Positions 15,773 to 53,228 of a stretch of DNA of 64,000 bases are shown one piece after another. Numbering within the stretch: position 1 is the first letter of the stretch; each line of letters opens with the position of its first letter. The DNA is from a virus. The position numbers were made by a program, and so were the translations under genes. The DNA lies in the IMG/VR virus record IMGVR_UViG_3300035661_000054. One strand, written 5' to 3'. The notes under the pieces are model-generated. The model searched no databases. It was not told the DNA's origin and worked only from the letters and a program-made list of their open reading frames with translations.

Positions 15773-15778
15773 AAAAAT

Positions 15779-15854: not shown

Positions 15855-15855
15855 T

Positions 15856-15931
15856 CAGTATGTAGGGAAGTTGGTATCCCACTTGATTTGGATTCAAGAG
15901 ATCGTAGGTTCGAGTCCTACCATACTGACCA
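15856..15931 (+). tRNA. tRNA-Pro (anticodon TGG)
   Basis: Acceptor cagtatg/catactg perfect, anticodon arm cttga-tttggat-tcaag, T arm gtagg-ttcgagt-cctac. Confidence 0.85.
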
Positions 15932-15938
15932 AAAATTT

Positions 15939-16015
15939 GTCTCCTTCGACTATGTTGGTTAGGTCATTACTCTCTCAGGGTGAAAAGATGGGATCGTCGC
16001 CCATAGGAGACTCCA
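15939..16015 (+). tRNA. tRNA-Glu variant (anticodon CTC)
   Basis: Acceptor gtctcct/aggagac perfect; anticodon arm ttact-ctctcag-ggtga; paralogue of Glu(TTC) at 16259; unusual T loop atcgtcg. Confidence 0.6.
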
Positions 16016-16022
16016 AATAAAT

Positions 16023-16099
16023 GGTTAATTAGCTCAGTTGGTTAGAGCGTTTCACTCATAACGAAAAGGTCGGTGGTTCAATTCCACCATTAACCACCA
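16023..16099 (+). tRNA. tRNA with anticodon CAT (second copy; Met or Ile2)
   Basis: Acceptor ggttaat/attaacc perfect; loop c-t-CAT-a-a; A31-C39 mismatch at base of anticodon stem. Confidence 0.75.
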
Positions 16100-16101
16100 A
16101 A

Positions 16102-16173
16102 CCTTGATGAATAACAGCCTTTACGTGGCTTCAAGGATAAGTAGGATTAAAATCCGAAACTAATGTTGTTAAA
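16102..16173 (+). repeat. inter-tRNA repeat element copy 6
   Basis: near-identical to copy 5. Confidence 0.8.
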
Positions 16174-16177
16174 TCGT

Positions 16178-16253
16178 GGGGTTATGGTATAAATGGCTAA
16201 CACAGTACCCTTGCAAGGTACAGTTCTGAGTTCGATGCTCAGTGGCTCCACCA
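16178..16253 (+). tRNA. tRNA-Ala (anticodon TGC), duplicate
   Basis: Identical to 15697-15772. Confidence 0.8.
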
Positions 16254-16258
16254 AAAAA

Positions 16259-16335
16259 GTCTCCTTCGACTATGTTGGTTAGGTCATCACCCTTTCAAGG
16301 TGAAGAGATGGGATCGTCACCCATAGGAGACGCCA
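16259..16335 (+). tRNA. tRNA-Glu (anticodon TTC)
   Basis: Acceptor gtctcct/aggagac; anticodon arm tcacc-ctttcaa-ggtga perfect. Confidence 0.75.
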
Positions 16336-16342
16336 AATAAAT

Positions 16343-16419
16343 GGTTAATTGGCTAAGTTGGTTAGAGTGTTTCACTCATAACGAAAAGGTCGGTGGTTCA
16401 ATTCCACTATTAACAACCA
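16343..16419 (+). tRNA. tRNA with anticodon CAT (third copy; diverged, G1-A72 mismatch)
   Basis: Same anticodon arm as 16023 copy; D arm changed (ggctaagttggttagagtg); 3' acceptor attaaca leaves position 1-72 unpaired. Confidence 0.6.
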
Positions 16420-16421
16420 AA

Positions 16422-16490
16422 CCTTGATGAATAACAGCCTTTACGTGGCTTCAAGGATAAGTAGGATTAAAATCCGAAACTAATGTTATT
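16422..16490 (+). repeat. inter-tRNA repeat element copy 7
   Basis: ccttgatgaataacagcctttacgtggcttcaaggataagtaggattaaaatccgaaactaatgttatt. Confidence 0.8.
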
Positions 16491-16493
16491 GAA

Positions 16494-16581
16494 GGAAGAT
16501 TGTCAGAGTGGTCTATTGTGCTTCTTTGCTAAAGAAGTGGGTTTAATCGCCCCACAGGTTCGAATCCTGTATCTTCCGCCA
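16494..16581 (+). tRNA. tRNA-Ser (anticodon GCT), long variable arm
   Basis: Acceptor ggaagat/atcttcc, anticodon arm cttct-ttgctaa-agaag, variable arm tgggtttaatcgcccca. Confidence 0.85.
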
Positions 16582-16583
16582 AT

Positions 16584-16657
16584 TCAGGGATCGTCTAATG
16601 GTAGGACACGAGACTTTGATTCTCGGTATTGTGGTTCGACTCCATGTCCCTGAGCCA
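16584..16657 (+). tRNA. tRNA-Gln (anticodon TTG)
   Basis: Acceptor tcaggga/tccctga perfect, anticodon arm cgaga-ctttgat-tctcg perfect. Confidence 0.8.
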
Positions 16658-16658
16658 T

Positions 16659-16733
16659 GTTTATTTAGCTTAATGGTAGAGCATTTCGTTTACACCGAAA
16701 GGGTTGGGGGTTCGAATCCCTCAAGAAACACCA
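16659..16733 (+). tRNA. tRNA-Val (anticodon TAC)
   Basis: Anticodon arm tttcg-tttacac-cgaaa, D arm gctt-aatggta-gagc, T arm ggggg-ttcgaat-ccctc. Confidence 0.75.
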
Positions 16734-16737
16734 ACTT

Positions 16738-16811
16738 GCCGCTTTAGTATAATGGCATTACAGTTGACTTGTAATCATCTGATCGCAGTTCGATTCTGTG
16801 AAGCGGCACCA
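16738..16811 (+). tRNA. tRNA-Thr (anticodon TGT)
   Basis: Acceptor gccgctt/aagcggc perfect; loop c-t-TGT-a-a; one U-U mismatch in anticodon stem. Confidence 0.7.
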
Positions 16812-16813
16812 AA

Positions 16814-16884
16814 CCTTGATGAATAACAGCCTTTATGTGGCTTCAAGGATAAGTAGGGTTAAAATCCGAAACTAATGTTATTAA
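16814..16884 (+). repeat. inter-tRNA repeat element copy 8
   Basis: ccttgatgaataacagcctttatgtggcttcaaggataagtagggttaaaatccgaaactaatgttattaatg. Confidence 0.8.
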
Positions 16885-16964
16885 TGGTGAAGTTATTGTA
16901 AAGATAGTATATTGTCTTTGAATAATCTGTTTAGATTTATAATTCCTAACTTCACCCTCAAATT

Positions 16965-17040
16965 GGTCTTGTAGTGTTAGCGGTAAGCACGTAAGCCTGT
17001 CACGCTTATAGGGTGGGTTCGAATCCCATCAAGATCGCCA
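16965..17040 (+). tRNA. tRNA-Asp (anticodon GTC)
   Basis: Acceptor ggtcttg/caagatc, anticodon arm taagc-ctgtcac-gctta perfect, T arm gtggg-ttcgaat-cccat. Confidence 0.8.
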
Positions 17041-27925: not shown

Positions 27926-28309
27926 ATGTTAGATTTTGTTATGTATTTTTCTTTTTCTATCTTTTCTTTGATTGTTTTTTCTTTTTTATATATTAAGACA
28001 ACTCCTTATAATGAAATTGAATTAATATTTACTGAGGGAAATAAGGCAGCGTCTTACGCATTTATAGGAGCATTAATCGGTTTTACCTTTCCGATTGCAA
28101 GCGTTGCGATTCATTCTCTAAGTTTTGAAGACTTTGCAAAATGGACGATGATTTCAGTGGCTATTCAATTGGTTTTTGCTATTGTTTTAACCAGAGGCTT
28201 TAAGGTTATTGCTAATCAGATTAAATCTGGACTTGATTCAGCGGGTATCTTTTTAGGTGGAAGTCATTTATCTTTAGGGATTATTAACGCTGCTTGTGTT
28301 TCATATTAA
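27926..28309 (+). CDS. membrane protein (3 TM)
   Basis: RBS aaggagtttttATG; hydrophobic segments. Confidence 0.4.
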   Translation: MLDFVMYFSFSIFSLIVFSFLYIKTTPYNEIELIFTEGNKAASYAFIGALIGFTFPIASVAIHSLSFEDFAKWTMISVAIQLVFAIVLTRGFKVIANQIKSGLDSAGIFLGGSHLSLGIINAACVSY

Positions 28310-30276: not shown

Positions 30277-31689
30277 TTAAGAATTACTTAATCTTTGTTC
30301 TGCTTGTTCTGCCAAAGGCGATCTAACAGTATCATTTAATATCAAAGAACCTGAACCACTCCAACCTTGCATTCTTTTAACTACGTGAGTTAACCCAGAA
30401 GTGTTTTCAGTCATGTAAGGCGTATCTATTTGAGCTAAGTTGCCCATACAAATAATTTTAGTTCCTTCGCCCGCTCTGGTTAATAGCATTCTCATTTCTT
30501 TAGGAGATAGATTTTGAGCTTCATCAATAATAATGAATCTATGTTGGAATGAACGACCACGCATAAAGCCAATAGATTTAACTTCAATTTTATCCAATAT
30601 AAATTGCATTGAATCCTTTTTAGCGGATAAAGCTCCGTGTGTTTTCTTTTCTGCTTCTTTGTCAAAATTCATTAAGGATTCAAGGTTATCATACATGTTA
30701 CCCATCCAGGCAGCCATTTTTTCTTCTTCAGTGCCTGGTAGGAAACCTATTTCTTCACCAACAGTAACCGTTGCTCTTGTTATCAATATTTTTGAGTAAA
30801 TATTTTCATCCAACACTTGTTCCAATCCAGCGGCAAGAGTTAAAAGTGTTTTACCAGTTCCAGCAGGTCCTAACAATGTAACAAAAGAAACAGATGGATC
30901 TAATAAAAGATTTAATGCTAAATTTTGCTCAAGATTTTTAGATTTTATACCCCAAACCTTTGACTTGTTTGTGTAATCCATTACTTTTTTAGCTTTAACT
31001 AATTTCCCTTCTTCTGTTTCTTCCAAGTAAACAACTTGATAAAACATATCCTCATCCTCATCTATACAAATAAAGTTATTGTAATTGATTTCTATTTTTG
31101 CTTCTTTATCTAAACAAAATGTAATAAAATCTTTATTTTTTTCATGTTCAGCAATTAAATCTCCACAAAGATCTTCGCAATCTAAATAAACAATTCCTGT
31201 TGATAGTAGCTCATTATCTTTAATAGCGTAATCGTTTTCATAGTCTTCAGTAGTCATTCCAAGAGAGCTGCCTTTAATTCTGACATTAATATCTTTTGAA
31301 ACAAGAATTACGTCTAAATATTTTTTGTTTTTTGATTTATTTGATAATTCAAGTTGAATTAAAGCTTGAGAAATAATAATATTATCGTTTACATTTGAAC
31401 CACTTTTTTCCAAATCTTCTTTACTTAATTTTGAAAAAAACAATCTTCCTAAATTTTCACCCAATTCAAAACCATTATTTAAATCTTCATTGTTAATTAC
31501 TGATTCAATCATTCTTGATGCTTGTCTTGCATTTCTTGATATTTCAGTTTGTCCTTTTTTATGTTTATCTAATTCTTCTAAGACGGTAAAAGGTATAAAT
31601 ACATCATGTTCTTGAAATTTAAAAATAGAACTTGGGTCACTAATTAAAACATTAGTATCTAATACAAATAACTTTTTATTTTTTCTCAT
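30277..31689 (-). CDS. phoH: PIN-domain / PhoH-like ATPase (YlaK-type)
   Basis: N-terminal PIN (FVLDTNVLISDP), C-terminal PhoH core with Walker A LLGPAGTGKT and Walker B IIIDEAQN. Confidence 0.85.
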   Translation of the reverse strand: MRKNKKLFVLDTNVLISDPSSIFKFQEHDVFIPFTVLEELDKHKKGQTEISRNARQASRMIESVINNEDLNNGFELGENLGRLFFSKLSKEDLEKSGSNVNDNIIISQALIQLELSNKSKNKKYLDVILVSKDINVRIKGSSLGMTTEDYENDYAIKDNELLSTGIVYLDCEDLCGDLIAEHEKNKDFITFCLDKEAKIEINYNNFICIDEDEDMFYQVVYLEETEEGKLVKAKKVMDYTNKSKVWGIKSKNLEQNLALNLLLDPSVSFVTLLGPAGTGKTLLTLAAGLEQVLDENIYSKILITRATVTVGEEIGFLPGTEEEKMAAWMGNMYDNLESLMNFDKEAEKKTHGALSAKKDSMQFILDKIEVKSIGFMRGRSFQHRFIIIDEAQNLSPKEMRMLLTRAGEGTKIICMGNLAQIDTPYMTENTSGLTHVVKRMQGWSGSGSLILNDTVRSPLAEQAEQRLSNS

Positions 31690-33514: not shown

Positions 33515-34633
33515 ATGAATATCAATGACATGAAGTTAGCTTTAGAGCGTGAAGAAATTCGAGTTCGTAATGAAACTGTGGATGGTGTTAATTTATCTAT
33601 TGTTTCTTATATGGTAGCAACTCCTGATTTATGGGATGTTGAAAATGCATTGGAGGCTCGTGGCATTACTTTTGACGAAAATGGTAATTGTGTTGCTCGT
33701 ACTATGGAAAAATTCTTTAATGTTGGTGAAAATAAATACACTCAACTTTCTGAATCTGATTTTTTAGGTTCTTATGTTTTTGATAAGCTTGATGGTTCTA
33801 TGATTTCCGTTGTTATGATTAATGGAAAATTATTTGCTAAAAGTAAGAAGTCTTTTTATTCCGATGTTGCTTTAATGGCTCAAAAATTTATTGATATTAA
33901 TCAGAATTATCAAGAATTTTGTAGAAGAATTATTGGTTCTGGTTATACTCCTACATTTGAGTTTGAATCTCCTGATGCTCAAATTGTAGTAGAACAAAAA
34001 GAAGAAAAAATGACTTTGCTTTTGGTTAGGGATATTGAAAGTGGAAAATATCTTGAATTTGATTGTTTAGTAAATTTGGCTAAAGAGTACAATATTCCTG
34101 TTGTAAGTGGCATGTGTTTTGATGATTTTTATAATCGTTTTTTGGTTTCTCAAGATGAAAACTTTTTAGATTTTTTACGAAAAAATGTAAAAGATGTTGA
34201 AGGTTGGGTTTTCTTGTTATCAACTGGACAACGTGTTAAATTAAAAACTGATTGGTATTTGTTGCGTCATCGTTTAACTTCTTATCATGAGAGAAATATT
34301 TTTGATTTAATTATTAATGAAGAGATTGATGATATTATGCCTTTGATTGAGAAAAAAGATGGTGCTGTTGATATTGTTAATCAAATTGGTCATCGTATTG
34401 CTCATTTTTATAAAGTTACTATGGATGAAACTATTGGTTTAGTTAATTTATGGAAAGAACAAGGTTTATCTTTATCTGAGATTGGTAAAAATTACTCAAA
34501 TAATATTTATTTTGGTTTAGCGATCAAATTATTCAAAGAACAAGAGCCAGATTATAAAAAATTTATTGTCAATACTTACCGTAAGGATTTCCACACTAAA
34601 TCTGTTTTTTGGGGTTTTGATACTGATTCCTAA
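33515..34633 (+). CDS. rnlA: RNA ligase 1 (T4 RnlA-like)
   Basis: CVARTMEKFFNVGEN vs T4 IASRPMEKFFNLNEN; LDGSMISVV vs EDGSLVSTY; PTFEFESPDAQIVV...KMTLLLVRDIESGKYLEFD vs T4 ANFEFVAPTNRIVL...KIILLNVRENETGEYISYD. Confidence 0.8.
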   Translation: MNINDMKLALEREEIRVRNETVDGVNLSIVSYMVATPDLWDVENALEARGITFDENGNCVARTMEKFFNVGENKYTQLSESDFLGSYVFDKLDGSMISVVMINGKLFAKSKKSFYSDVALMAQKFIDINQNYQEFCRRIIGSGYTPTFEFESPDAQIVVEQKEEKMTLLLVRDIESGKYLEFDCLVNLAKEYNIPVVSGMCFDDFYNRFLVSQDENFLDFLRKNVKDVEGWVFLLSTGQRVKLKTDWYLLRHRLTSYHERNIFDLIINEEIDDIMPLIEKKDGAVDIVNQIGHRIAHFYKVTMDETIGLVNLWKEQGLSLSEIGKNYSNNIYFGLAIKLFKEQEPDYKKFIVNTYRKDFHTKSVFWGFDTDS

Positions 34634-34674: not shown

Positions 34675-34703
34675 TTGACTTAATTTGTTGTTTTTGATAT
34701 AAT
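34675..34703 (+). promoter_or_regulatory. sigma70-type promoter TTGACT-N17-TGaTATAAT
   Basis: TTGACT 34675-34680, TGATATAAT 34695-34703. Confidence 0.6.
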
Positions 34704-35193: not shown

Positions 35194-36072
35194 ATGCCTA
35201 ATCATGTCGCAAATATTATCAAGTTTAATAACGTTTCTGATGATGTTCCATCTGAAGTGAAAATTTTTGATGAATCAGTTGTTGCTTTTAAGCTATCTTT
35301 GCTTATTTTAAATGAGCCAAATAATTCTGAATATATTGGTTATCTTGATCATTCAATTTCTGATAAAGATATTGTATTAAAAATTATTAATGATTTTGAT
35401 TTAAAAATTTCTGATGAGTTTATGGTGGGTGTTTTAATGAAATACTCTAAAGATTTGCCTGAAGTTTTCCGATTTAGCGATTTTTATGGAAATAATTATT
35501 TTAATGAAGATGGTACAATTAACCTTGAAAAGCTAAAAGAAAAAATAAAGGATTCTTCATGGGATCATTTAAAGTCTGTAGGGTTTTTTTATACTGATGC
35601 TTGGCGTCCTATGAAGTTGCTTTATGCGGTTGCTGGATTTAATAACACTTTTATTAGATCAGGTATTGTGAAAGATTTTAATTTATATGGTTTAAGTTTT
35701 TTAAGTGGTTATGATGCCAGTGTTAATTATTATGGTACTAAGTGGGGTATTTATAATACCAGTTACGAAAATGGTGTTTTATATTATGAAACCGCCTGGA
35801 GTCCTTTGAATGATGAATCTTTAATTGCTCTGGTTAATTATGTTAAAGAAAAAACTGGAATGATTGCTTACGAACATATTTACGCAGAACAAGGTATTGG
35901 TTTTTGTGGTAATAATATTTTCTTAGTAGAGAATGGTTCTCTTGAGTTTAATATTCGTCGAGAGGATGAATTTTCTTTATTTTATAGTGATGGGGATTGT
36001 TATTTCAATATTGAGAATTCGGAAATGCCTGAATATTTGCGTGAAATGGAAAATTATAGTTTTGGTGGTTAA
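35194..36072 (+). CDS. hypothetical protein
   Basis: 292-aa ORF, promoter TTGATT-N17-TGaTATAAT upstream (35131-35160). Confidence 0.45.
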   Translation: MPNHVANIIKFNNVSDDVPSEVKIFDESVVAFKLSLLILNEPNNSEYIGYLDHSISDKDIVLKIINDFDLKISDEFMVGVLMKYSKDLPEVFRFSDFYGNNYFNEDGTINLEKLKEKIKDSSWDHLKSVGFFYTDAWRPMKLLYAVAGFNNTFIRSGIVKDFNLYGLSFLSGYDASVNYYGTKWGIYNTSYENGVLYYETAWSPLNDESLIALVNYVKEKTGMIAYEHIYAEQGIGFCGNNIFLVENGSLEFNIRREDEFSLFYSDGDCYFNIENSEMPEYLREMENYSFGG

Positions 36073-36073
36073 T

Positions 36074-36102
36074 TTGACTTAGTTGTTTATTTTTGATATA
36101 AT
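36074..36102 (+). promoter_or_regulatory. sigma70-type promoter TTGACT-N17-TGaTATAAT
   Basis: TTGACT 36074-36079, TGATATAAT 36094-36102. Confidence 0.6.
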
Positions 36103-36237
36103 AATCAACAAGAAAGAGAAAAATGGTTAAAATTTTGATGCTGATAAACATTTCCACAAAAGCTCTTTAGATATAATTATAACTTTTGTCAAAACCTTCA
36201 GCTTCTCTTATTTTTTTAATTTTTTGGAGTAATAAAC

Positions 36238-36900
36238 ATGGGATATACAACTGAGTTTCGTGGTAATATGGTGTTAAAAGATTTTGCTGAATCTGGAAAA
36301 ATGCAAGAAATTAAGGATTGTCTCAATCGTCTTGATGTTTTTGAAGACTATACCTTTGATGATTATTATGCTTTGTTAAATGGTGATTTTTTTATCAATC
36401 CAGTTGATGTTGAAGCAACTGCTTTACTTAGAAGTAAGTCGAAGGATGGTGAAGATTTAATTCCAGTTATGCAAAACTCTACAGGCTCTATTTTAACTGA
36501 TTTAACACCAGTTGGTGTAATTACATTGTTCAATTTAATGGCTAATTCTCGTCGTATGAAGCGTGATACATCTGTTATCGATTATCGTGTTGGTTATTAC
36601 GGTGTAGATGGTGTTTATTTTGTAAGTAAAAAATCTTTATGTAACTTTGGTCAGAATCATGATGAAAGTATTATTGATTATAATGTCGCTCCTCTTGATT
36701 TATCTCTTTGGCTGCAATGGAATTTTTCAATTTACGATGAAGAAATTGTTATTGAATGGGATGGTGGAGAGAAGTTTTATGATTATAAGGAATGGTTAGA
36801 TTTTATTCATAATTCACTGTTGTCTATTGGTCTTTCTTTTTCTGGAAAAATTGAATATCGTGGTGAAGATTGGGATGATAGGGGTGATATTATCTATTAA
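36238..36900 (+). CDS. hypothetical protein
   Basis: 220-aa ORF with RBS ttggagtaataaacATG. Confidence 0.45.
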   Translation: MGYTTEFRGNMVLKDFAESGKMQEIKDCLNRLDVFEDYTFDDYYALLNGDFFINPVDVEATALLRSKSKDGEDLIPVMQNSTGSILTDLTPVGVITLFNLMANSRRMKRDTSVIDYRVGYYGVDGVYFVSKKSLCNFGQNHDESIIDYNVAPLDLSLWLQWNFSIYDEEIVIEWDGGEKFYDYKEWLDFIHNSLLSIGLSFSGKIEYRGEDWDDRGDIIY

Positions 36901-36920
36901 CTATTTACTAATTTTAAAAG

Positions 36921-36956
36921 GCTTGCTATAATGATATTGTTGTAGCAAGCTTTTTT
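36921..36956 (+). terminator. rho-independent terminator
   Basis: gcttgctataatgatattgttgtagcaagc + tttttt. Confidence 0.65.
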
Positions 36957-37012
36957 GTTGCAAGGTTTAAAATTTTTAAAAGTGTGGCCAAAATGCACAC
37001 AAAAGGAAAAAA

Positions 37013-38707
37013 ATGCAAAAATTAAATTCACAGATTTTAATGTCTGCGGACAGTTACAAATTAACACATGTCGATCAAATTATTGAGGGGACTACTCATA
37101 TTTATGAGACTTTTACTCCTCGAAGTCTAAAACATTTACCAAAAGAAGTTAAAGAACTTACAAATAATAAAATTATTTGGTTTGGTTTTCAGTCAACTAT
37201 CAAAATGATTCATGATAAATTTCAAGAAGAATTTTTTTCTAAAAATTATGATGAAGCTGTGCATTACTTTCTAAGTCAAGTAGGATTTTTTACTGGTGGT
37301 TCTTACGATGATTCTCATATTTATGAATTACACAAGCTTGGGTATTTACCGATTAAAGTAAAATCTCTTGAAGAAGGTAGTTTGGTTAATGTAAAAATCC
37401 CATGTATGACCATTATTAATACTGTTCCAGGCTATGCTTGGTTGGTTGGCTATCTTGAAACTATTTTATCGAATGAAACATGGAAATCTACCACTAATGC
37501 AACCATTGCTTTTGCTTATCGTAAATTGTTTACAAAGGCAGCTATGGAAACAGTTGGTAATGATGAGTTCGTTAAATGGCAAGGTCATGATTTTTCAGCC
37601 CGTGGTATGTCTGGATCGGCTGATGCTTCAAAACAAGGAATGAGCCATTTGACCTCGTTTTTTGGTTCTGACGCTTTTGGAAGTATGTTACCTATTAGTT
37701 ACTATTATAATGAAAGTATTAATAATTTCATTGCTGGTTCTATTAGAGCTTCTGAACACATGACAGAAACATTAGCTATTCAGGTTTTAGCAAAAAAACA
37801 CAATGTTGATTTAGATGAAGCTGAATATATGCAAATGAAGCGATTGATAACTGAGGTTTACCCTACAGGTATTGTTGCTCGTGTTTGTGATTCTTATGAT
37901 TATTGGAATGTTGTAACAAATATTATTCCGAGATTAAAAGAAGATATTATGAATCGTGGACAAGATTCTAAGGGTTTTTCAAAAGTTGTAATTCGACCAG
38001 ATTCAGGTGAACCTGTAGATATTATTTGCGGTACTGCTATTCCTGTTTTTACATTAACAGATGTTGAGCGTTGGTTTAAAGAAAACAAACATAAAGAATC
38101 TCAAATCTTTGTAAAAATTGATGGTAATAATGTGGCTCATTATATGAATTGTGAAGTAACTGAAAATGGTATTGTTACTAATGAAATTCCTTCTAATAAA
38201 GTTACAGCAGAAATGAAAGGTACTGTTTCTTGTTTATGGGAAATTTTTGGTGGTACAATAACTGAAAAAGGTTATAAACTACTTGATAATCATATTGGTA
38301 TGATTTATGGTGATTCAATCACTATTAAAAGAGCTGAAGAGATTGTTTTTCGTTTAAAAATGAAAGGCTTTGCTTCTATTAATACTTTGCTTGGTATCGG
38401 TTCTTATACATACCAAATGGTTAGTAGGGATACGCTTGGTATGGCTTTAAAGGCGACCTTTGCTATTGTTGATGGTCAAGAAATTGATTTAAATAAAAAC
38501 CCAAAAACAGATGATGGAACAAAAAAATCTGCAAAAGGAAGAGTAAGGGTTGAAAAAAATAATTCAGAATATGTTTTATTTGATCAGCAAAGTGAACAAG
38601 AAGAAGCTGGTGGATTATTAAGAATTGTTTATTGTGATGGTAAATTCTTAAATCAACAAACTTTTTCTGATATTAGAACAATTATTGATTCTAATGTTTT
38701 GTTGTAA
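37013..38707 (+). CDS. nadV: nicotinamide phosphoribosyltransferase family protein (NadV/NAMPT-like; alternatively NARP1 Namat-like)
   Basis: NAMPT family hallmark VIRPDSGEPVDII and overall type II phosphoribosyltransferase organisation; 564 aa is longer than canonical NAMPT. Confidence 0.8.
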   Translation: MQKLNSQILMSADSYKLTHVDQIIEGTTHIYETFTPRSLKHLPKEVKELTNNKIIWFGFQSTIKMIHDKFQEEFFSKNYDEAVHYFLSQVGFFTGGSYDDSHIYELHKLGYLPIKVKSLEEGSLVNVKIPCMTIINTVPGYAWLVGYLETILSNETWKSTTNATIAFAYRKLFTKAAMETVGNDEFVKWQGHDFSARGMSGSADASKQGMSHLTSFFGSDAFGSMLPISYYYNESINNFIAGSIRASEHMTETLAIQVLAKKHNVDLDEAEYMQMKRLITEVYPTGIVARVCDSYDYWNVVTNIIPRLKEDIMNRGQDSKGFSKVVIRPDSGEPVDIICGTAIPVFTLTDVERWFKENKHKESQIFVKIDGNNVAHYMNCEVTENGIVTNEIPSNKVTAEMKGTVSCLWEIFGGTITEKGYKLLDNHIGMIYGDSITIKRAEEIVFRLKMKGFASINTLLGIGSYTYQMVSRDTLGMALKATFAIVDGQEIDLNKNPKTDDGTKKSAKGRVRVEKNNSEYVLFDQQSEQEEAGGLLRIVYCDGKFLNQQTFSDIRTIIDSNVLL

Positions 38708-38747
38708 ATAGGGTGGATTATTCCATCCTTTCTAAAAGGAAATAAAT

Positions 38748-39608
38748 GTGTTAAAAATTATTACAGAAAGTGGAAAAGAAATTAACTTCAAAGAAATTAA
38801 TTATCCAAGTGGTGAATTTGATTTTAATATTGTTTTTAATCATGAAATAATGTCTTTAGTTAAACATGAATATGTTGTAATTAAAAATAATTTTTCAAAT
38901 ATTAACAATGTTTTTAAAATTCCTTTCTTAGTTAATGCTCTAATTCAATCAGGTTTTAAGGAAATTAAAATTCAGTTTGATTACTTGCCGTTTAGTAGAC
39001 AGGACAGGTCTTTTATTGCAAACTCTTCTTTTGGCTTAGAATCGTTCATTAAAATTTTATCTGGTTCTGGTGTTAATGAGATTATTGTTGATGATCCGCA
39101 TAATGAAGATGTTTTAAGTTTGCTTTGTAGTAAATACGGATTAAAAATTACTGTTAATACACAAAGCTTTTTAATTAAAAGTAAATTAAATCAACATTTT
39201 TCACTTGATGAAAAAACAGCTTTGGTTTGTCCTGATAAAGGTGCTTTAAAAAAGATTATACCTTTATCTGACGAATTAGGTTTAACGGTTGTTTTGGCTG
39301 AAAAAACTCGTTCCTTAGCTGACGGAAAGATTGTTGACACTAAAATTGTTGGTTATCAACAAAATGGAGAAACAACTTTATTTTTAAATGATGTTGATTT
39401 TTTAAATAATTTTGATAAATTAATTATTGTAGATGATATTTGTGATGGTGGTGCTACTTTTATTGCTTTAGCAAATGTTATTAGAAGTCTTGACTACAAA
39501 GGTGAAATGATTTTGATTGTAACTCATGGGTTTTTCTCAAAAGGACTTGAACCTTTGTTAGCTAAATTTGATTCAGTTTTAAGTATTCATTATTACTCTA
39601 AAATTTGA
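38748..39608 (+). CDS. ribose-phosphate pyrophosphokinase-like protein (Prs homologue; alternatively NARP1 Adps-like)
   Basis: GTG start after RBS aaggaaataaat; PRPP-binding-type motif LIIVDDICDGGATF; immediately downstream of nadV-like gene. Confidence 0.6.
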   Translation: MLKIITESGKEINFKEINYPSGEFDFNIVFNHEIMSLVKHEYVVIKNNFSNINNVFKIPFLVNALIQSGFKEIKIQFDYLPFSRQDRSFIANSSFGLESFIKILSGSGVNEIIVDDPHNEDVLSLLCSKYGLKITVNTQSFLIKSKLNQHFSLDEKTALVCPDKGALKKIIPLSDELGLTVVLAEKTRSLADGKIVDTKIVGYQQNGETTLFLNDVDFLNNFDKLIIVDDICDGGATFIALANVIRSLDYKGEMILIVTHGFFSKGLEPLLAKFDSVLSIHYYSKI

Positions 39609-39612
39609 TTTT

Positions 39613-39641
39613 TGACTTCCTTGGTGTTTTGTTGTATAATA
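39613..39641 (+). promoter_or_regulatory. sigma70-type promoter TTGACT-N17-TATAAT
   Basis: TTGACT 39613-39618, TATAAT 39636-39641. Confidence 0.55.
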
Positions 39642-39690
39642 ATTAAACATTAAGGAAGTTTCCTTTATTTAATTTTGGAGTTCTTGTTTT

Positions 39691-40695
39691 ATGAAGGCAT
39701 ATATCACTATTGGAGTTTCAGCTTCAGGTAAAACAACCTGGACTAATCAATTTTTAAAAAACCATGAAATGCTTTTAAAATCAGGAAAATCTTCTGGTGT
39801 TTATTGTAATATTAATTTTGATGAAATCAGGGCTTTGGTTTTGGTTGAAATGGGTATTATAAAATCTATTGAGGATTTTTCTTGGGATTTATGGAATCTA
39901 AAATACGAAAAAGCCATGTCTAAAAAAGCAAAATATATTTTTGATAATGCTGTCGCACAGGGTTGTTTTATTATTTTGTCTAATACAAACCTAAATAAAG
40001 ATAATCTTATTGCCAAAACAAAAGAGCTTGAATCTTTAGGTTATTCTGTTGAGTGGGTTTATTTTGATATTTCTTATGATGAAGCTTTGAAACGTGATGC
40101 TGGTCGTAAAAATGGTGTTGGTGCTTATGTTATTCGTAAACAATGGAAAAGCTATCTTGAGTTGAAGAGTAAAAGTTTTGTAGTTGAAAATGCTAAATAT
40201 ATATCTTCACTTTGCTCAGTTCAGGCTATTGAACCTTATGTTTTTTCTGATGAAAAAACAGAAGCTTTGATGTTTGACATTGATGGTACTATTGCCAATA
40301 TGGTTGACAGAAGAGCTTATGATTGGGATAAAGTTGGTCAAGATAAGCCAGATTTTGTTATGCAAATTTTAATTGACGGTTGGCTTTCTTTGGGTAAAAA
40401 AATCGTTTTCCTTAGTGGTCGTGATGGTCAATGTTATAAAGAAACTAAAGAATGGATTTTAAAGTATTTTTCAAAAGTTGATTTTGATAAAGAAAAAGGA
40501 AATTCAGTTCTTTTCATGCGTGAACATCAAGATATGAGAAAAGATTATATTGTAAAAAAAGAAATTTTTGATAATAAAGTTAGAAATTCTTATAATATTA
40601 TTGCTGTTTTTGATGATCGTCCTCAAGTGGTTAGGATGTGGCATGATTTAGGTTTAAAAGTTTGGTCTACTGGCGATCAGTTAATTGATTTTTAG
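39691..40695 (+). CDS. pseT: polynucleotide 5'-kinase / 3'-phosphatase (T4 Pnk-like)
   Basis: N-terminal P-loop GVSASGKTTW kinase domain; C-terminal HAD-type phosphatase with FDIDGT (DxDGT) motif. Confidence 0.8.
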   Translation: MKAYITIGVSASGKTTWTNQFLKNHEMLLKSGKSSGVYCNINFDEIRALVLVEMGIIKSIEDFSWDLWNLKYEKAMSKKAKYIFDNAVAQGCFIILSNTNLNKDNLIAKTKELESLGYSVEWVYFDISYDEALKRDAGRKNGVGAYVIRKQWKSYLELKSKSFVVENAKYISSLCSVQAIEPYVFSDEKTEALMFDIDGTIANMVDRRAYDWDKVGQDKPDFVMQILIDGWLSLGKKIVFLSGRDGQCYKETKEWILKYFSKVDFDKEKGNSVLFMREHQDMRKDYIVKKEIFDNKVRNSYNIIAVFDDRPQVVRMWHDLGLKVWSTGDQLIDF

Positions 40696-40765
40696 GTGAT
40701 TATTAAGCTATTTATTTTTATTTTTTTTGATATAATTGAGATTTGTTAATTTCTAAGGAGTTTTT

Positions 40766-41812
40766 ATGAGTTGGTTTGTTAAAGATTTTAAATGGTCTTT
40801 TTTCTTTACTCTGGTGGCTGTTTTTTTAGCTTATCAATGGGCTGGTTTGATAGGTTCTTTTACAGTTTTAATATTGATTGCTTTAGAAATCAGTATTTCT
40901 TTTGATAATGCTGTTGTTAATGCAAAAATACTAAATGGAATGGATAAAATTTGGCAAGATAGGTTTTTAACCTGGGGTGTATTTATCGCTGTTTTTGGGA
41001 TGCGAGTGATTTTCCCGATTTTAATTGTTGCCTTATCTGCAAGTCTTCCTTTTACTCAAGTTGTTGATATGGCTTTAAATGATCAAAAGCTGTATGAGCA
41101 ACATGTTATGGCTTCCAGTTATGTTATTAGTGCTTTCGGTGGTATTTTCTTATTAATGGTTTTTCTTGAATTTTTATTTGATTATGAGCGTGAATTATTG
41201 TGGATTTCTTTTATTGAAAAACAATTTTCAAAATTGGGTAAAATTGAATCATTAAGTATTGCAATTGGGTTATTTGTTTTAACTTTGGTTACTTATCAAG
41301 TTCCAGAGAAAGAAAAATTAAGTGTAATGATTTCTGGTGTTAGTGCTATGTTTTTATTTATCATTCTTAGTTCTTTATCATCTTATATGAAAAAATTAAA
41401 AGAAGATATTGATTTGGGAAAAACATCTAAAAAAAGTATTGTTTCAGCAGGTTTTATGACTTTCGCGTATTTAGAAGTTTTAGACGCTTCTTTCTCTCTT
41501 GATGGTGTTATTGGTGCTTTTGCAGTTACCAAGGATATTATCGTTATCATGCTTGGTTTAGGTGCTGGTGCTTTATTTGTTCGTTCTATAACTATTTCAT
41601 TAGTTAGACGTGGAGTATTAAATAATTATGTTTATTTAGAGCACAGTGCTCATTATGCTATTGGTGCTTTGGCTATGATTATGTTCTTACACATGTTTAT
41701 GGACATCACAGAGGTTGTTACTGGCGGTATTGGAATTGCTTTCATTTTAGCTGGTATTTATAGTAGTAGTATTCGTCGCAATCAAAAAAAAGAGGTTAAA
41801 AAATGTTGTTAA
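40766..41812 (+). CDS. integral membrane protein, DUF475/TerC-related family (tentative)
   Basis: 8-9 TM helices; paired motifs EISISFDNAV and SFSLDGVIGAF. Confidence 0.45.
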   Translation: MSWFVKDFKWSFFFTLVAVFLAYQWAGLIGSFTVLILIALEISISFDNAVVNAKILNGMDKIWQDRFLTWGVFIAVFGMRVIFPILIVALSASLPFTQVVDMALNDQKLYEQHVMASSYVISAFGGIFLLMVFLEFLFDYERELLWISFIEKQFSKLGKIESLSIAIGLFVLTLVTYQVPEKEKLSVMISGVSAMFLFIILSSLSSYMKKLKEDIDLGKTSKKSIVSAGFMTFAYLEVLDASFSLDGVIGAFAVTKDIIVIMLGLGAGALFVRSITISLVRRGVLNNYVYLEHSAHYAIGALAMIMFLHMFMDITEVVTGGIGIAFILAGIYSSSIRRNQKKEVKKCC

Positions 41813-42252
41813 TTGAAAAATACGAAGAAAGAGTTTTAAGACTTGAGCAAGATTTAGCAGAAGCTTATCAAGTAATTGGTTGTTTTTTACGTTCTGGTAC
41901 ATCTGTTAAGGATTCTGAAATAGAAAAAGCTTTAGATAATATTATAAGTGCTATTGATGATGAGCCAAGAGAGCATGAAGATTTACTTCCTTTTCCTAAA
42001 GAAAGTAAATTAAATATTAAAGAATTATTAAAAGAATTGAGTATAATTTCTAATAATGCTGAAAATGAATCTTTGCCAGATTCTATGAAAAGCTCTCATT
42101 TAAAATATATGATTGATCAAATGAAAGATCCTATGATGGAATGGGATAAATTTAATCGTTGGCTTGGGTGGATTCAAGCTTCTTTGGTTGCTAACGGTGT
42201 TAGTAGCTTAGAAGAACAAAAAGAAATTATTAGAAAAAATCTTTCTAAATAG
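41803..42252 (+). CDS. hypothetical protein
   Basis: 149-aa ORF overlapping upstream stop (operon). Confidence 0.4.
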   Translation: MLLIEKYEERVLRLEQDLAEAYQVIGCFLRSGTSVKDSEIEKALDNIISAIDDEPREHEDLLPFPKESKLNIKELLKELSIISNNAENESLPDSMKSSHLKYMIDQMKDPMMEWDKFNRWLGWIQASLVANGVSSLEEQKEIIRKNLSK

Positions 42253-42290: not shown

Positions 42291-43118
42291 TTGCTTATTA
42301 TGTTTAAAATGTTATCTGTTGTATTGCTTTCTTTTTTCGTTCTTAGTGGTTGCGTAAAACCTATTACTACTGAACCATCTCATGAAACTGTTTTAGTGGA
42401 TAAACCTTATATTTTTGGTCATGGTGGAGTTCGTAGTGAAACACAAAAACCTGGTTTAGGTTGGTTTTTCTGGTCAACAAGTGGGATTCAAGTTCCAGTT
42501 TACGAATTTAAAATTGATGAGCCTTTTGATGATTTGCCAACTAAAATGCAATCTTTGATTGATTTTCATAGTTATTTAAAATTAGAAATTACTAATCCAG
42601 TTTTACTTGTTGAGAAGTTTAGATATGTAGATGATGGTAAGGATGTTTGGTATAGTTCTGCACTTAAAGAACAATATAGAACTATTGTTAGAAATGTTGC
42701 ACGAAATTATACGATGGAATCTATGTTGACTGATTCAACTACAGTAAATACAATGGAATCTGAAATTAGAGCGGAAATGGATAAATATATTAAATCAATT
42801 GGGATTCCTGTCGTGTTAAAAGATTTAAGTTTGGGTGCTATTAGACCTAATCAGGCTGTAATGGCAGAAATTGATAATACAGCTTCACAACAACAAAGAA
42901 TCAAAACTGAGATTGCAAGAAATGAAGCAGAAATGTCTCGTAAAGACGCTGAAAAATCAAGAGCTACTGCTGATAAAGCATATCAAGAAGAGCTTGGTTT
43001 AAGTTCTAATGAAATTGTTTCTTTGCAGATTGCTAAGGTTTACGCTGACGCATGTGCTAAATCTGCAACTTGTGTTATTAACAATTCTCCTACAGGTGTA
43101 GCAGTTTCTGTTAAATAA
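42291..43118 (+). CDS. lipoprotein, possibly SPFH/band-7-like
   Basis: Lipobox LSGC; C-terminal Ala/Glu-rich region reminiscent of SPFH tails; weak. Confidence 0.35.
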   Translation: MLIMFKMLSVVLLSFFVLSGCVKPITTEPSHETVLVDKPYIFGHGGVRSETQKPGLGWFFWSTSGIQVPVYEFKIDEPFDDLPTKMQSLIDFHSYLKLEITNPVLLVEKFRYVDDGKDVWYSSALKEQYRTIVRNVARNYTMESMLTDSTTVNTMESEIRAEMDKYIKSIGIPVVLKDLSLGAIRPNQAVMAEIDNTASQQQRIKTEIARNEAEMSRKDAEKSRATADKAYQEELGLSSNEIVSLQIAKVYADACAKSATCVINNSPTGVAVSVK

Positions 43119-46162: not shown

Positions 46163-46888
46163 TTGAAAACAATTATTTTTGCTGATGGTGATAATTTTTC
46201 ATATAAAAGATTGGGCGATGTTATTCAATGTATTGGTAAAACAACAAAATTGAGTATTAAGTTATTTGCCAATCATATAGGTTTGATTGATTGCTGGAAA
46301 AAAGAAATTATTAAATATGGTTTTGAATCTGTTAATATCTTTCAAAGTAAATTTGGTAAAAAGAATTCGAGTGACATTGTTTTAAGTGTTGAGGCATTAA
46401 AGTCTCTTTACGAAGAAGATTGGGATAGATTTGTTTTTATTAGTGGTGATGGTGATTTTGCTTATTTATTTAAAACAATTAAAAACAATAAAAAAATTGT
46501 AAGTATTTTTAGTGGTGAACATTCTTCTTGTGCGTCAAGATTAGAATGTACTGATTATCATATTTTATATGAAAAATCAATGGTTAATGTTGAGAGAAAT
46601 GACACTGGTTATTCTTTTTATACTAAATATTTTAATAAAAGCATTGCGCATAAAAAGTTAATGGTTGTAAAAAGAATTAATGATTTGATAAATTTAGCTG
46701 GAAATGATGGTTGTGTTGAAATTCCTGGTTCTCTGTTAAGAGAGATGTCTGCGAAAGAAGGTATTATAGTAAGTAAAAGAAATACTAAAAAACACATAGA
46801 ACATCTTGGTTTTTCTCTTGTTGCTAAAGACAAAAGGGTTTATGTTTGCAAAGGCGAACATACAGATTATTTACTAAGTTTGATTTAA
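46163..46888 (+). CDS. NYN/LabA-like domain protein (putative RNase)
   Basis: TTG start after RBS aaaggtgatg; IIFADGDNF ... FISGDGDF match NYN core. Confidence 0.55.
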   Translation: MKTIIFADGDNFSYKRLGDVIQCIGKTTKLSIKLFANHIGLIDCWKKEIIKYGFESVNIFQSKFGKKNSSDIVLSVEALKSLYEEDWDRFVFISGDGDFAYLFKTIKNNKKIVSIFSGEHSSCASRLECTDYHILYEKSMVNVERNDTGYSFYTKYFNKSIAHKKLMVVKRINDLINLAGNDGCVEIPGSLLREMSAKEGIIVSKRNTKKHIEHLGFSLVAKDKRVYVCKGEHTDYLLSLI

Positions 46889-49905: not shown

Positions 49906-50562
49906 TTAAAGCATTTTATCCATTTCTGCCATGATTCTCATAGCTGGAGTTGATTTAATCATTTCTTCAAAATATTGACGACAAATACTGTGAGTTTTAT
50001 CATCCATTTTAAAGCCTTTTGAAATTGAAAAACGATACGCTCTCATAATTCTGAGTTTGTCTTCATTTATTCTGTCTTTAGCTTTTCCTACAAATCTGAG
50101 CTTTTTAGATTTAATATCTTCCAAACCCAAACCAGTAGGATCAATTATTTTATCATTTACTATATCGTAATACAAAGCATTAACTGTAAAGTCTCTGCGA
50201 TTAGCATCATCAAATATAGTGCCTATTGAAGTTGAATCAGGTCTCCTACCATCGGTATAAGTACCATCTTTTCGATATAAAGCAATTTCAAACTGTTGTT
50301 CGTTCTTACTTACAATCATAACAAGAAAGTTTTTTCCTGCTTCATTTACTTGCCAGTTGTTTGAGGCGAAAGCCTCTTTAATATCATCAAGATTTCCATT
50401 GCAAACAATGTCAAAATCTTTAATTTTATGACTTTCTTTATGATAAAGATTGGTTAAATAATCTCTAACACAACCACCAACCAACATAACCTCTGATGAA
50501 CAACTTTTTAAAATTAAAAAAAGTTGTAAAAGAGTGTTATTTTTTTCGATTGTTTCTATCAT
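49906..50562 (-). CDS. cca: tRNA nucleotidyltransferase (CCA-adding enzyme) head domain protein
   Basis: GGCVRD, DFDIV (DxD), RRDFTVNALYYD signatures of class II Pol-beta CCA-adding/poly(A) polymerase head; only 218 aa. Confidence 0.75.
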   Translation of the reverse strand: MIETIEKNNTLLQLFLILKSCSSEVMLVGGCVRDYLTNLYHKESHKIKDFDIVCNGNLDDIKEAFASNNWQVNEAGKNFLVMIVSKNEQQFEIALYRKDGTYTDGRRPDSTSIGTIFDDANRRDFTVNALYYDIVNDKIIDPTGLGLEDIKSKKLRFVGKAKDRINEDKLRIMRAYRFSISKGFKMDDKTHSICRQYFEEMIKSTPAMRIMAEMDKML

Positions 50563-51691: not shown

Positions 51692-51744
51692 CTATTGACA
51701 AACATTATTTGGTTTGTTATACTTATATCAAATGGTTGTGGTCT

Positions 51745-52037
51745 TAAGACATAGTTAAATATTTTTAAGCATCTGGAAGGCGGTTCGATTCCGCCCATCT
51801 CCACCAAAAAATATATTGTTTAGTATGTTTTTTAATGGGGATGACCAGGTTTCGACAGGTGTGTTAAGGGTATTGATGACAACTTCGCAAGGTGGAAGCG
51901 ATCTCTCTATGAGAAAAGAAACAAAAAAATAAATGCAAACGACGAAAACTTTGCTATTGCAGCTTGATACTGCTTGGGTTTGAGATACCTCTAAACAGAA
52001 CATCTCAATCGAACCTTACCTAACGGTAAGGTTTTTT
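51745..52037 (+). ncRNA. ssrA: tmRNA (ssrA), apparently circularly permuted two-piece form
   Basis: Acceptor piece ends 51806 with T arm ggcgg-ttcgatt-ccgcc, 3' acceptor catctcc, A, CCA. Coding piece starts 51837 with ggggatgaccaggtttcgacagg (GGGGnUGA..GGnUUCGACGGG tmRNA 5' consensus), pairs with G3-U70. Tag ORF 51935-51967 is gcaaacgacgaaaactttgctattgcagcttga (ANDENFAIAA-stop). Terminator 52011-52037. 5' boundary of acceptor piece uncertain. Confidence 0.6.
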
Positions 52038-52042: not shown

Positions 52043-52119
52043 GCACAGGTGTCAGAGTGGTCTATTGAGGTGGATTGCAAATCCATTGTTCAGCGGTTCG
52101 AATCCGCTCTTGTGCTCCA
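52043..52119 (+). tRNA. tRNA-Cys (anticodon GCA)
   Basis: Acceptor gcacagg/cttgtgc, anticodon arm gtgga-ttgcaaa-tccat, T arm agcgg-ttcgaat-ccgct, 3' tcca. Confidence 0.75.
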
Positions 52120-52193: not shown

Positions 52194-53228
52194 GTGTCTA
52201 ATGTTTTTATGATGATTTCTGGTGGAATTGATTCTATGGTTTTAGCTCAATATTATGTTAATAATGGTATTGAATTTAAAGCTATTTTTATTGATGATTC
52301 AGAATATTCTAAAGGTGTTTGTTCTAAAAATGTTGTGGAATTATTTTGTCAAAAAAACAATATTAAATTGTATCAAAAAAAATATGTTAAAAATAAAAAC
52401 GGAAACAATAACCTTGAAGCGAATATGAGAGATTTTAGATATAATTTTGCTTTTGAAGTTATGGCTGGTTTTGAAAATCCTATCTTAATTACAGCTCATC
52501 ATTTAAATGATCGTGTTGAAACAATGCTAATGAATTTTGTTAGAGGTTCTGGTGTTTTAGGATTGAGTAATATGAATGAAATTGAATCTAAAAACAAAGG
52601 TTTTAATTATCAGCATCATCGTCCTTTTATTAATAAATCAAAAAATGAAATTAAATTAATGGCTAATGAATACGGATTTATTGAAAATATTCATTATGTT
52701 GAGGATTTAACTAATAATGATACTGATATTACAAGAAACTGGTTTCGTCATAATGTTGTTAATAAAATTATGAGTGAATTTTCTCATAAAGGTATTTCTC
52801 GTAGCTTTGAGCTTCTTTCTCAAGAAAGTGTTGATTTAAATAATTTAAAAATTAACTTAGAAGATGGTTATATTTGTAGTGATTTTATTGATATGAATTG
52901 CATTAATAAAAGTCAGGTTTATTATTTGGCTAAAAAGTTTTTTGAAAAATCTGGTATTGCTTTTACAAAAAAAGGTGCGGAGTTGTTTGCATGGCTCATT
53001 TTTAACGGAAAGGAATTTTCTTTAAGAAGTAAAAATGGTGACATTCAATTTGGTTTTACTATTATTTCTAATGAAGAATCAAATGATGATTTTGAATCAA
53101 ATAAGTTTATTAAAGTTTTTGCAATTAATAAAAATGAAAAACAAGAGTGTAAGCAAAAATTTGATCAACATACAAAATATCTGTATGTTTCACCAAAATT
53201 AAGATTTTACAATATTAATATCTATTAA
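52194..53228 (+). CDS. tilS: tRNA(Ile)-lysidine synthetase TilS-like PP-loop ATPase
   Basis: N-terminal PP-loop ISGGIDS (SGGxDS), HHLNDRVETMLMN downstream as in TilS/MesJ N-domain; 344 aa. Confidence 0.65.
   Translation: MSNVFMMISGGIDSMVLAQYYVNNGIEFKAIFIDDSEYSKGVCSKNVVELFCQKNNIKLYQKKYVKNKNGNNNLEANMRDFRYNFAFEVMAGFENPILITAHHLNDRVETMLMNFVRGSGVLGLSNMNEIESKNKGFNYQHHRPFINKSKNEIKLMANEYGFIENIHYVEDLTNNDTDITRNWFRHNVVNKIMSEFSHKGISRSFELLSQESVDLNNLKINLEDGYICSDFIDMNCINKSQVYYLAKKFFEKSGIAFTKKGAELFAWLIFNGKEFSLRSKNGDIQFGFTIISNEESNDDFESNKFIKVFAINKNEKQECKQKFDQHTKYLYVSPKLRFYNINIY

Follow-up and report, generated by a model that had tools for sequence, protein, structure and literature searches.

Does the gene pair at positions 37013-39608 of the phage stretch IMGVR_UViG_3300035661_000054 encode plain NAD salvage or the NARP1 pathway of NAD+ reconstitution? 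The stretch analysed here (the window, 64,000 nucleotides) is AT-rich (~28% GC) and derives from a large uncultured phage. As originally predicted, the pair consists of two open reading frames (ORFs) of the plus strand. The first (37013-38707, ATG start, 564 aa) contains the sequence VIRPDSGEPV and belongs to the NAMPT family according to PRK09198 and Pfam. The second (38748-39608, GTG start, 286 aa) contains DDICDGGATF and is a weakly matching homologue of Prs. NARP1 consists of an Adps-clade Prs homologue adjoining a Namat-clade NAMPT homologue. Of the phages analysed, 859 (4.3%) have it, and Namat is found within 10 genes of 97% of the Adps genes (Osterman et al., bioRxiv 10.1101/2024.02.11.579819).

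The pair very probably represents a functional NARP1 system (Namat plus Adps) because homology, fold, catalytic residues, the selectivity clamp of the first protein, the Adps-type loop of the second, clade membership and adjacency with conserved synteny all point in this direction. From validated homologues we infer the substrate use and the anti-defence phenotype of the pair. A SIR2-, TIR- or SEFIR-type NADase of the host would split NAD+ into ADP-ribose (ADPR) and nicotinamide. The Adps homologue (38748-39608) would then pyrophosphorylate the free ribose of ADPR in an ATP-driven reaction, yielding ADPR-pyrophosphate (ADPR-PP). In the Namat homologue (37013-38707), nicotinamide would displace the pyrophosphate of ADPR-PP and form NAD+ directly. 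NAD+ would be regenerated without nicotinamide mononucleotide (NMN) or a host adenylyltransferase, and the phage would be able to replicate in hosts with Thoeris type I, DSR1/2, SIR2-HerA, SEFIR and similar systems.

Family membership of the two proteins

The 564-aa protein scores 466 bits with NCBIfam PRK09198 (cutoff 405), a model that all Namats and Nampts pass and that cannot tell them apart. Pfam NAPRTase (1e-31 class) and NAMPT_N are matched as well. The best sequence match in the PDB is 9w5x/9w5w with 418 bits (mammalian NAMPT ~160), and 9w5x was identified as SPbetaL1 Namat by a 100% tblastn match. The same entry is the top Foldseek match (TM 0.93 on target). The AlphaFold2 (AF2) model of the protein has a pLDDT of 94.9 and a pTM of 0.94. 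With class-specific hidden Markov models (HMMs), the protein scores 612 bits for Namat and 177 bits for NARP2-type Nampt, a difference of 435 bits. Sequence identity amounts to 38-47% with Namats versus 27-30% with KVP40-type Nampts; the corresponding tblastn values are 34-44% for Adps-carrying phages and 27-28% for KVP40-type phages. In neighbour-joining trees the protein is placed within the clade of the most recent common ancestor of SPbetaL1 and Bas63 Namat in 79-82 of 100 bootstraps and with Nampt in none.

The catalytic core is intact. The equivalents of D13, Y15, F189, R192, D215, the catalytic His, R306, D308 and G360-D361 of SPbetaL1 Namat are kept, and the RPDSG motif is invariant in the reference alignment (Table 1). 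Mutation of R306 in SPbetaL1 Namat abolishes NARP1 activity (Osterman et al., 10.1101/2024.02.11.579819; PMC12774641).

These comparisons bear on a pathway resembling NARP2, which combines a KVP40-type Nampt with Nmnat (Osterman et al., 10.1101/2024.02.11.579819). In such a pathway the NAMPT-like protein would make NMN, the Prs-like protein would supply phosphoribosyl pyrophosphate (PRPP) and an Nmnat encoded beyond the window would yield NAD+. This proposal draws on the fact that the window covers only part of the genome. Both the identities and the HMM difference given above argue against it. Furthermore, no phage was found with both pathways, and NARP2 Nampts have no Adps partner (Osterman et al., 10.1101/2024.02.11.579819). 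No Nmnat, Nudix, Macro or RyR family was detected among the window ORFs of at least 90 aa, which speaks against NARP2 and, within the window, excludes the variant NARP1-AP (Adps, the Macro-domain phosphatase Adpp and Namat, as in Vibrio phage Gary; bioRxiv 10.64898/2026.01.28.702374). A NARP2-like pathway is considered extremely unlikely.

The first protein had been described as unusually long. At 564 aa this is true relative to canonical Nampt but not within its family, since the additional sequence lies at a hotspot that is also occupied in the validated Bas63 Namat. The extra ~70 residues mostly belong to a 57-aa insertion directly after the RPDSGxPVxIICG strand, and a smaller two-helix insertion around residues 249-282 provides the remainder. 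In the AF2 model the larger insertion is a well-defined block (pLDDT 94-97) of one helix (residues 348-357) and three strands (363-369, 375-383 and 386-391). The site is occupied in Bas63, Bas62, LAh_6, PsIn and a Listeria phage, but not in SPbetaL1 or FADO. Accordingly, Bas63 Namat has 593 and Bas62 Namat 577 residues. The spacing over the site is bimodal in 171 homologues (~25-40 or ~60-120 residues), and the value of the window protein (79) is close to the median of 74. The 57-aa insertion should be compatible with NARP1 function, as it is in Bas63. The structural paper on SPbetaL1 Namat contains no discussion of this long-form insertion (PMC12774641).

The 286-aa protein is a remote member of the Prs family. 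It scores 76 bits with TIGR01251 (cutoff 113), a model that gives 423 bits for E. coli Prs and 96-139 bits for validated Adps; all Prs equivalog models remain far under their cutoffs. Pfam yields only the generic Pribosyltran family (28.8 bits), and the protein matches PHROG 619 with 173 bits. The AF2 model (pLDDT 91.7) shows the complete Prs fold of two domains, and its TM values to human, archaeal and bacterial Prs are 0.64-0.73. The Adps HMM scores 164 bits and the Prs HMM 53. For comparison, leave-one-out class HMMs give reference Adps proteins 127-261 bits (Adps) versus 51-107 (Prs), and bacterial Prs proteins 87-136 versus 186-613. In the neighbour-joining tree rooted on bacterial Prs, the protein is located inside the clade of the most recent common ancestor of SPbetaL1 and Bas63 Adps in 98 of 100 bootstraps. 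This clade is free of Prs, including a Sulfolobus fragment, in 93 of 100.

All pyrophosphokinase residues that were examined are kept (R84, D86, R87, H118, D163, K186, R188, D229, D230 and T237). Lys186 corresponds to Lys162 of SPbetaL1 Adps, and the exchange K162A abolishes NARP1 activity there (Osterman et al., 10.1101/2024.02.11.579819). The substrate loop, on the other hand, differs from that of Prs. The ribose-5-phosphate loop of Prs (DTGGT) is not kept and reads DGGAT. The residue at the position of Prs T225 is Gly in 202 of 208 Adps-like proteins and Thr in one, while it is Thr in all 11 Prs proteins in which the loop was located. Additionally, Asp37 of Prs (the aspartate of FxDGE) is replaced by Ser in the window protein, as in Bas63. 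Nine of ten Adps references have Ser, Asn or Gly here; ICP1 has Asp.

In the case of plain NAD salvage, the Prs-like protein would convert ribose-5-phosphate to PRPP, the NAMPT-like protein would form NMN with nicotinamide and host NadR/NadD/PncC would complete NAD+. Membership of both proteins in the Prs and NAMPT families is in line with this route, and Namat enzymes keep an NMN-forming activity with PRPP in vitro (Osterman et al.; PMC12774641). Against it stands the Prs-like protein, which lacks the DTGGT loop and D37, lies far under the Prs cutoffs and groups with Adps. The validated SPbetaL1 Adps gives no PRPP-synthase product, and Bas63 NARP1 functions without host pncC or nadR (Osterman et al., 10.1101/2024.02.11.579819). 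Further evidence on salvage comes from the NAMPT-like protein.

The selectivity clamp and points against the assignment

The structure of SPbetaL1 Namat (9W5X/9W5W) shows that selectivity for ADPR-PP resides in a two-part clamp (Lan et al., PMC12774641). One part, termed SCL, is a variable loop with R40 in the third position or, alternatively, Lys/Tyr and then a residue that stacks. With Lys in the third position, the adjoining next residue stacks on the adenine (PMC12774641). The other part, SCH, is a helix motif with the Namat consensus GS-X-phi-X-phi-X-phi-TRD with an aromatic residue at position 3 and 'most often' another one at position 7 (PMC12774641).

Both parts are present in the window protein. 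The Lys-His pair of its SCL also occurs in LAh_6, and Bas63 has Lys-Trp. In its SCH (GSYTYQMVSRD), position 3 is Tyr465, the phi positions are occupied by Thr, Gln and Val, and Ser replaces Thr before RD. The motif resembles that of Namats (GS[FY][TS]YQ..TRD) rather than that of Nampts (GGGLLQ[QK]xDRD); HdNadV, the NadV of Haemophilus ducreyi, has GAQTYQRNTRD. The clamp was aligned with three validated Namats (SPbetaL1, FADO and Bas63), seven other Adps-linked homologues and two NARP2-type Nampts. Five positions separate validated Namats from Nampts (SPbetaL1 40, 362, 391, 392 and 396), and the window protein has Lys (with His next to it), Ser, Ser, Tyr and Met, respectively. All five are in the Namat state or in a variant that is present in other Adps-linked members. 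Among 182 homologues, SCH position 3 is aromatic or His without exception, and 18 share the SRD ending.

With regard to the two pathways proposed originally, NARP1 is supported by the clamp, the Adps-type loop and the grouping of the proteins with Adps and with Adps-linked Namats. Plain NadV/Prs salvage lacks support, as the Prs loop reads DGGAT and the NAMPT-like protein does not group with KVP40-type NadV. Another argument for salvage is HdNadV (9KE8, identified from its Foldseek description), the second-best PDB match of the 564-aa protein. HdNadV has been used as a working Nampt to produce NMN (PMC6095924). Nevertheless it lacks the clamp residues and has E40, G362, A391, Q392 and R396. 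The clamp residues of the window protein are thus absent from HdNadV as well as from Nampts, and plain salvage is regarded as quite improbable. Informative for a Namat are its clamp residues and a partner Adps; both occur in the window. The position of HdNadV points to a gene of Namat origin that either returned to PRPP-dependent NMN synthesis or was kept for it.

Several observations weigh against the assignment to NARP1. HdNadV nests in the Namat clade (57% identity to SPbetaL1 Namat, 87 of 100 bootstraps); since it is a working Nampt, clade placement alone is no proof of a preference for ADPR-PP. The trees themselves are neighbour-joining trees with modest sampling and a single archaeal Prs fragment. 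Moreover, the scan of contigs with E. coli Prs returned only gammaproteobacterial Prs with at least 80% identity, and this narrow set was supplemented by PDB-derived fragments. At SCH position 7 the window protein has Met469 instead of an aromatic residue, and the equivalent Y396 aids adenine binding in SPbetaL1 Namat. Met is found here in 20 of the 182 homologues (11%), including most of the nearest relatives, and the Adps-linked homologues of PsIn and Chaser have Cys and His, respectively. Single clamp mutants of SPbetaL1 Namat, e.g. Y396K, lower the activity only ~1.3-1.7-fold (PMC12774641).

The second protein contributes further points of this kind. The PDB holds no Adps structure, and the markers of Adps specificity are empirical correlates. 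The 286-aa protein is very divergent, with at most 38% identity to anything but its twin. Next to its catalytic loop it has a unique 14-aa insertion: the spacing from K.R to DD is 43 residues, compared with a median of 29 (5-95% range 27-32) in 207 homologues. Among these the insertion is found elsewhere only in a 95%-identical protein (P0001), and it is ordered in the AF2 model. Finally, the order of the genes is reversed. In the window namat precedes adps; adps comes first in 75 of 76 related IMG/VR loci and in all ten annotated reference phages. Gene order is not among the published criteria for NARP1 (Osterman et al., 10.1101/2024.02.11.579819).

The two genes differ in their histories. 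The closest relatives of the window Namat are 59-68% identical, while the Adps partners of these relatives are just 28-29% identical to the window Adps. The arrangement varies as well. In one relative (L178) Adps is located conventionally upstream of a Namat that also has Met at SCH position 7. In another (L183) it lies ~4.3 kb downstream, with a Band_7 gene between namat and adps. No Adps was found in ~3-8 kb of flanking sequence around the Namat relatives L180, L182 and L184. The discordant identities indicate that adps evolved independently or was exchanged. As a separate observation, L182 is a T4-like contig (Namat relative 63% identical, no Adps within 8 kb) that encodes a Pfam Acb3 protein at 6060-6719, two genes upstream of Namat.

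Could the pair be derived from NARP1 but act on a modified ADPR derivative or another acceptor? The Adps insertion and the clamp Met would be the signs of such shifted chemistry. The spacing that is unique to this lineage and the unequal conservation of the two genes would agree with it, as would the absence of a Macro phosphatase from the window ORFs of at least 90 aa. However, the catalytic and loop residues are all those usual in Adps and Namat, 20 homologues including L178 with its conventional upstream Adps also have Met at position 7, and an insertion alone is uninformative on specificity. Shifted chemistry is therefore judged very unlikely. It is likewise improbable that the window Adps differs in substrate range and accepts, for instance, a modified ADPR such as ADPR-1''-phosphate made by aRES-type defences. 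If it did, resistance would be achieved without a Macro phosphatase. The reversed order, the discordant histories, the 14-aa Adps insertion and the Met at position 7 are within-family variation and not signs of a different system.

The locus and other genes of the window

The gene order of the window is also present on the metagenome contigs Logan SRR11723145 and JGI 3300037010. A megablast search of positions 36000-42000 against phage records gave no match and hence no close cultured relative. PADLOC returned no meaningful match for the gene pair. The closest relatives of the window Adps are encoded at 80 IMG/VR loci, 76 of which have a same-strand Namat homologue no more than 7 kb away. The two upstream ORFs (35194-36072 and 36238-36900) are not associated with NARP1 in these 80 loci.

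Table 1. Coordinates of the gene pair, its sequence motifs and flanking elements in the window
Feature	Position	Strand	Basis
namat, nicotinamide ADP-ribose transferase homologue (NAMPT family), 564 aa	37013..38707	+	PRK09198, PDB, Foldseek, class HMMs
Namat SCL, residues 36-53 PRSLKHLPKEVKELTNNK, K40-H41 at predicted stacking position	37118..37171	+	alignment with SPbetaL1 R40
Namat catalytic RPDSG (R328 = SPbetaL1 R306, D330 = D308)	37994..38008	+	invariant in 66-sequence alignment
Namat 57-aa insertion, residues 342-398, folded helix plus three-strand sheet	38036..38206	+	alignment; AF2
Namat SCH motif GSYTYQMVSRD, residues 463-473	38399..38431	+	matches Namat consensus
adps, ADP-ribose pyrophosphokinase (ADPR-PP synthetase) homologue, 286 aa, GTG start after AAAAGGAAA	38748..39608	+	HMMs, tree, fold
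Adps catalytic loop K186-T-R188 (K186 = SPbetaL1 Adps K162 = E. coli Prs K194)	39303..39311	+	alignment
Adps lineage-specific 14-aa insertion GYQQNGETTLFLND between catalytic loop and substrate loop	39351..39392	+	spacing; AF2
Adps substrate (ribose-5'-phosphate / ADPR) loop DDICDGGAT	39432..39458	+	Prs has DDxxDT[GA]GT; invariant in reference alignment
Promoter-like site TTTACT-17-TGcTATAAT (extended -10), 5' of namat	36904..36932	+	consensus scan 10/12 plus TG; consensus match only
Small intergenic hairpin GGGTGGA-ttat-TCCATCC then TTTCT	38711..38728	+	read from sequence
Near-consensus promoter-like site TTGACT-17-TATAAT, 4 nt 3' of adps stop, before PNKP gene	39612..39640	+	11/12, consensus match only

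The two genes are adjacent on the same strand with a gap of 40 nt. The promoter-like site upstream of namat is the likely start of a two-gene unit. In the gap, the small hairpin is located between the namat stop codon and the ribosome-binding site of adps; the scan made no terminator call for it. The consensus scan detected nothing promoter-like between namat and adps. As promoter-like sites are found only outside the pair, namat and adps most likely form a bicistronic unit and the following gene for a T4-type PNKP (39691-40695) a separate one. Near-consensus TTGACT-N17-TATAAT sites (11/12 each, plus strand) precede individual genes at 34675-34703, 36074-36102 and 39612-39640. This repetition is consistent with many early genes, each independently promoted.

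The HAD phosphatase of the PNKP was considered as an analogue of Adpp and rejected, as the gene has its own near-consensus promoter-like site. PNKP was also rejected as a part of NARP1: it has no homologue in the 80 related NARP1 loci and is located among tRNA-repair genes.

The original prediction had linked a PnuC-like transporter and a NADAR protein to the pair. The two ORFs are 13.6 kb and 22 kb away, respectively, with many unrelated genes between, so the linkage lacks support. ORF 53240-53848 matches Pfam PF04973 with 24.0 bits, below the gathering score of 27.3, and therefore cannot be called PnuC-like with confidence. It has no PHROG match and no PDB match at E<=10. A single homologue was found in the databases, 93% identical and without a Pfam assignment; the protein lacks tryptophan and has ~6-7 hydrophobic segments. 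NR kinase and NadR, which could use an imported riboside, are absent. PnuC was rejected as a functional partner of the pair, its support being the one sub-threshold Pfam match. ORF 61466-61933, by contrast, is a NADAR protein as predicted (PF08719, 89.5 bits, cutoff 35.1; TIGR02464, 75.7 bits versus a cutoff of 73.7; PHROG 1017). Phage NADAR proteins (AdfN) are orphan antitoxin-like ADP-ribosylglycohydrolases that neutralise DarTG1 (PMC11825919). A NADAR gene lies within 7 kb of NARP1 in 3 of the 80 loci. This ORF appears to be better explained as an anti-DarTG factor than as a partner of NARP1. The two ORFs are best treated as separate items with an NAD/ADP-ribose theme in common.

In the window, an array of 23 tRNA genes (12634-17040, plus strand) covers most amino acids, with three tRNA-Met and duplicates for Gly, Ala, Leu, Ser and Glu. 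A permuted tmRNA of the two-piece type (51709-52036, plus strand) is followed by tRNA-Cys (52043-52119). It scores 131 bits with Rfam beta_tmRNA (gathering 84) and 112 bits with tmRNA_permuted (gathering 47), and ARAGORN predicts the tag ANDENFAIAA. A betaproteobacterial-type tmRNA is odd in a phage of 28% GC and may hint at the host.

Additionally, there is a dense set of genes for tRNA/RNA repair and maturation at 30277-31689 (minus strand), 33515-34633, 39691-40695, 46163-46888, 49906-50562 (minus strand), 52194-53228 and 62599-63672. The set comprises PhoH+PIN, an Rnl1-type RNA ligase, the T4-type PNKP (kinase plus HAD phosphatase), a NYN nuclease, a CCA-adding-enzyme head domain, a TilS-like PP-loop ATPase and a second RNA ligase. 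NARP1 is sometimes located next to RNA-repair genes, as a comparison of loci including Bas62 (L004) and the 80 IMG/VR loci (L098-L177) indicates. In Mycobacterium phage Chaser (L016) a PNK gene directly follows Namat (32% identity to the window PNKP), and in Pseudomonas phage PsIn (L015) Rnl1 and an ATPase are encoded upstream. Within 7 kb of NARP1, a PNK/ATPase-like gene occurs in 9, an Rnl1-like gene in 7 and a phosphoesterase gene in 11 of the 80 IMG/VR loci. A loose RNA-repair neighbourhood recurs in ~10% of NARP1 loci and is a minority association.

In an aggregate Pfam scan of positions 1-27500, a GGDEF diguanylate cyclase (2e-35), HDOD, PilZ, glutathionylspermidine synthase (1e-102), PspA/IM30, an M48 peptidase, a non-specific endonuclease and SSB were matched. 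Genes for c-di-GMP signalling, as found in this region, are unusual for a phage. Membrane proteins of the TerC/DUF475, SPFH/Band_7 and DUF350 families are encoded at 40766-41812, 42291-43118 and 27926-28309.

Comparison with known systems

The locus is most similar to the NARP1 systems of the Bacillus phages SPbetaL1 and FADO and of the Escherichia phage Bas63. It shares with them adjacent same-strand genes of the Adps and Namat clades, the catalytic residues of both enzymes and an SCH/SCL clamp; the long-form insertion of Namat is shared with Bas63. It differs from them in the order of the genes, as namat comes first here and adps there. The SCH has Met at position 7 and SRD instead of the TRD of reference Namats. 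The window Adps shares only 23-35% identity with reference Adps proteins, and 25-27% with the three that are validated. It also has the 14-aa insertion and ends in a short C-terminus.

Both core enzymes are also in common with NARP1-AP, but no Macro gene lies up to two genes from the pair or among the window ORFs of at least 90 aa. With the macro protein of PsIn as a query, no match was found in the window lineage, and matches were present in 13 of the 80 related loci. The neighbouring gene of the window that includes a phosphatase encodes a T4-type PNKP, not a Macro protein, and has a promoter-like site of its own. With NARP2 (NadV and NatV of KVP40), the locus shares a phage-encoded NAMPT-family enzyme that restores NAD+ from nicotinamide, in the window as judged by homology. 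In contrast to NARP2, the window protein is located outside the KVP40-type Nampt clade, has GSYTYQ instead of GGGLLQ and an Adps partner, and no Nmnat was found among the window ORFs of at least 90 aa.

HdNadV (PDB 9KE8/9KEO) likewise belongs to the NAMPT family, nests among the Namats and shares 42% identity and its fold (TM 0.93) with the window protein, but the two differ at all five clamp positions. Prs of classes I and III shares with the window Adps the two-domain fold and the residues for ATP/Mg binding and pyrophosphoryl transfer (RQDR, H, K.R and DD). The window Adps, however, is 19% identical to E. coli Prs, stays under the curated cutoffs and has DGGAT instead of DT[GA]GT. It also has Ser for Asp in FxDGE and a catalytic loop of the K.R....G.I type.

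Published structural criteria settle the choice between salvage and NARP1 at this locus. Adjacent phage genes labelled 'ribose-phosphate pyrophosphokinase' and 'nicotinamide phosphoribosyltransferase' usually conceal NARP1, and clade is a less reliable annotation marker than the clamp residues combined with a partner that has Gly where Prs has T225. While the understanding of the pathway is unchanged by this locus, NARP1 extends to a deeply divergent, uncultured and AT-rich phage lineage. The pair is a divergent addition to an already described and fairly common phage counter-defence system and not a new system.

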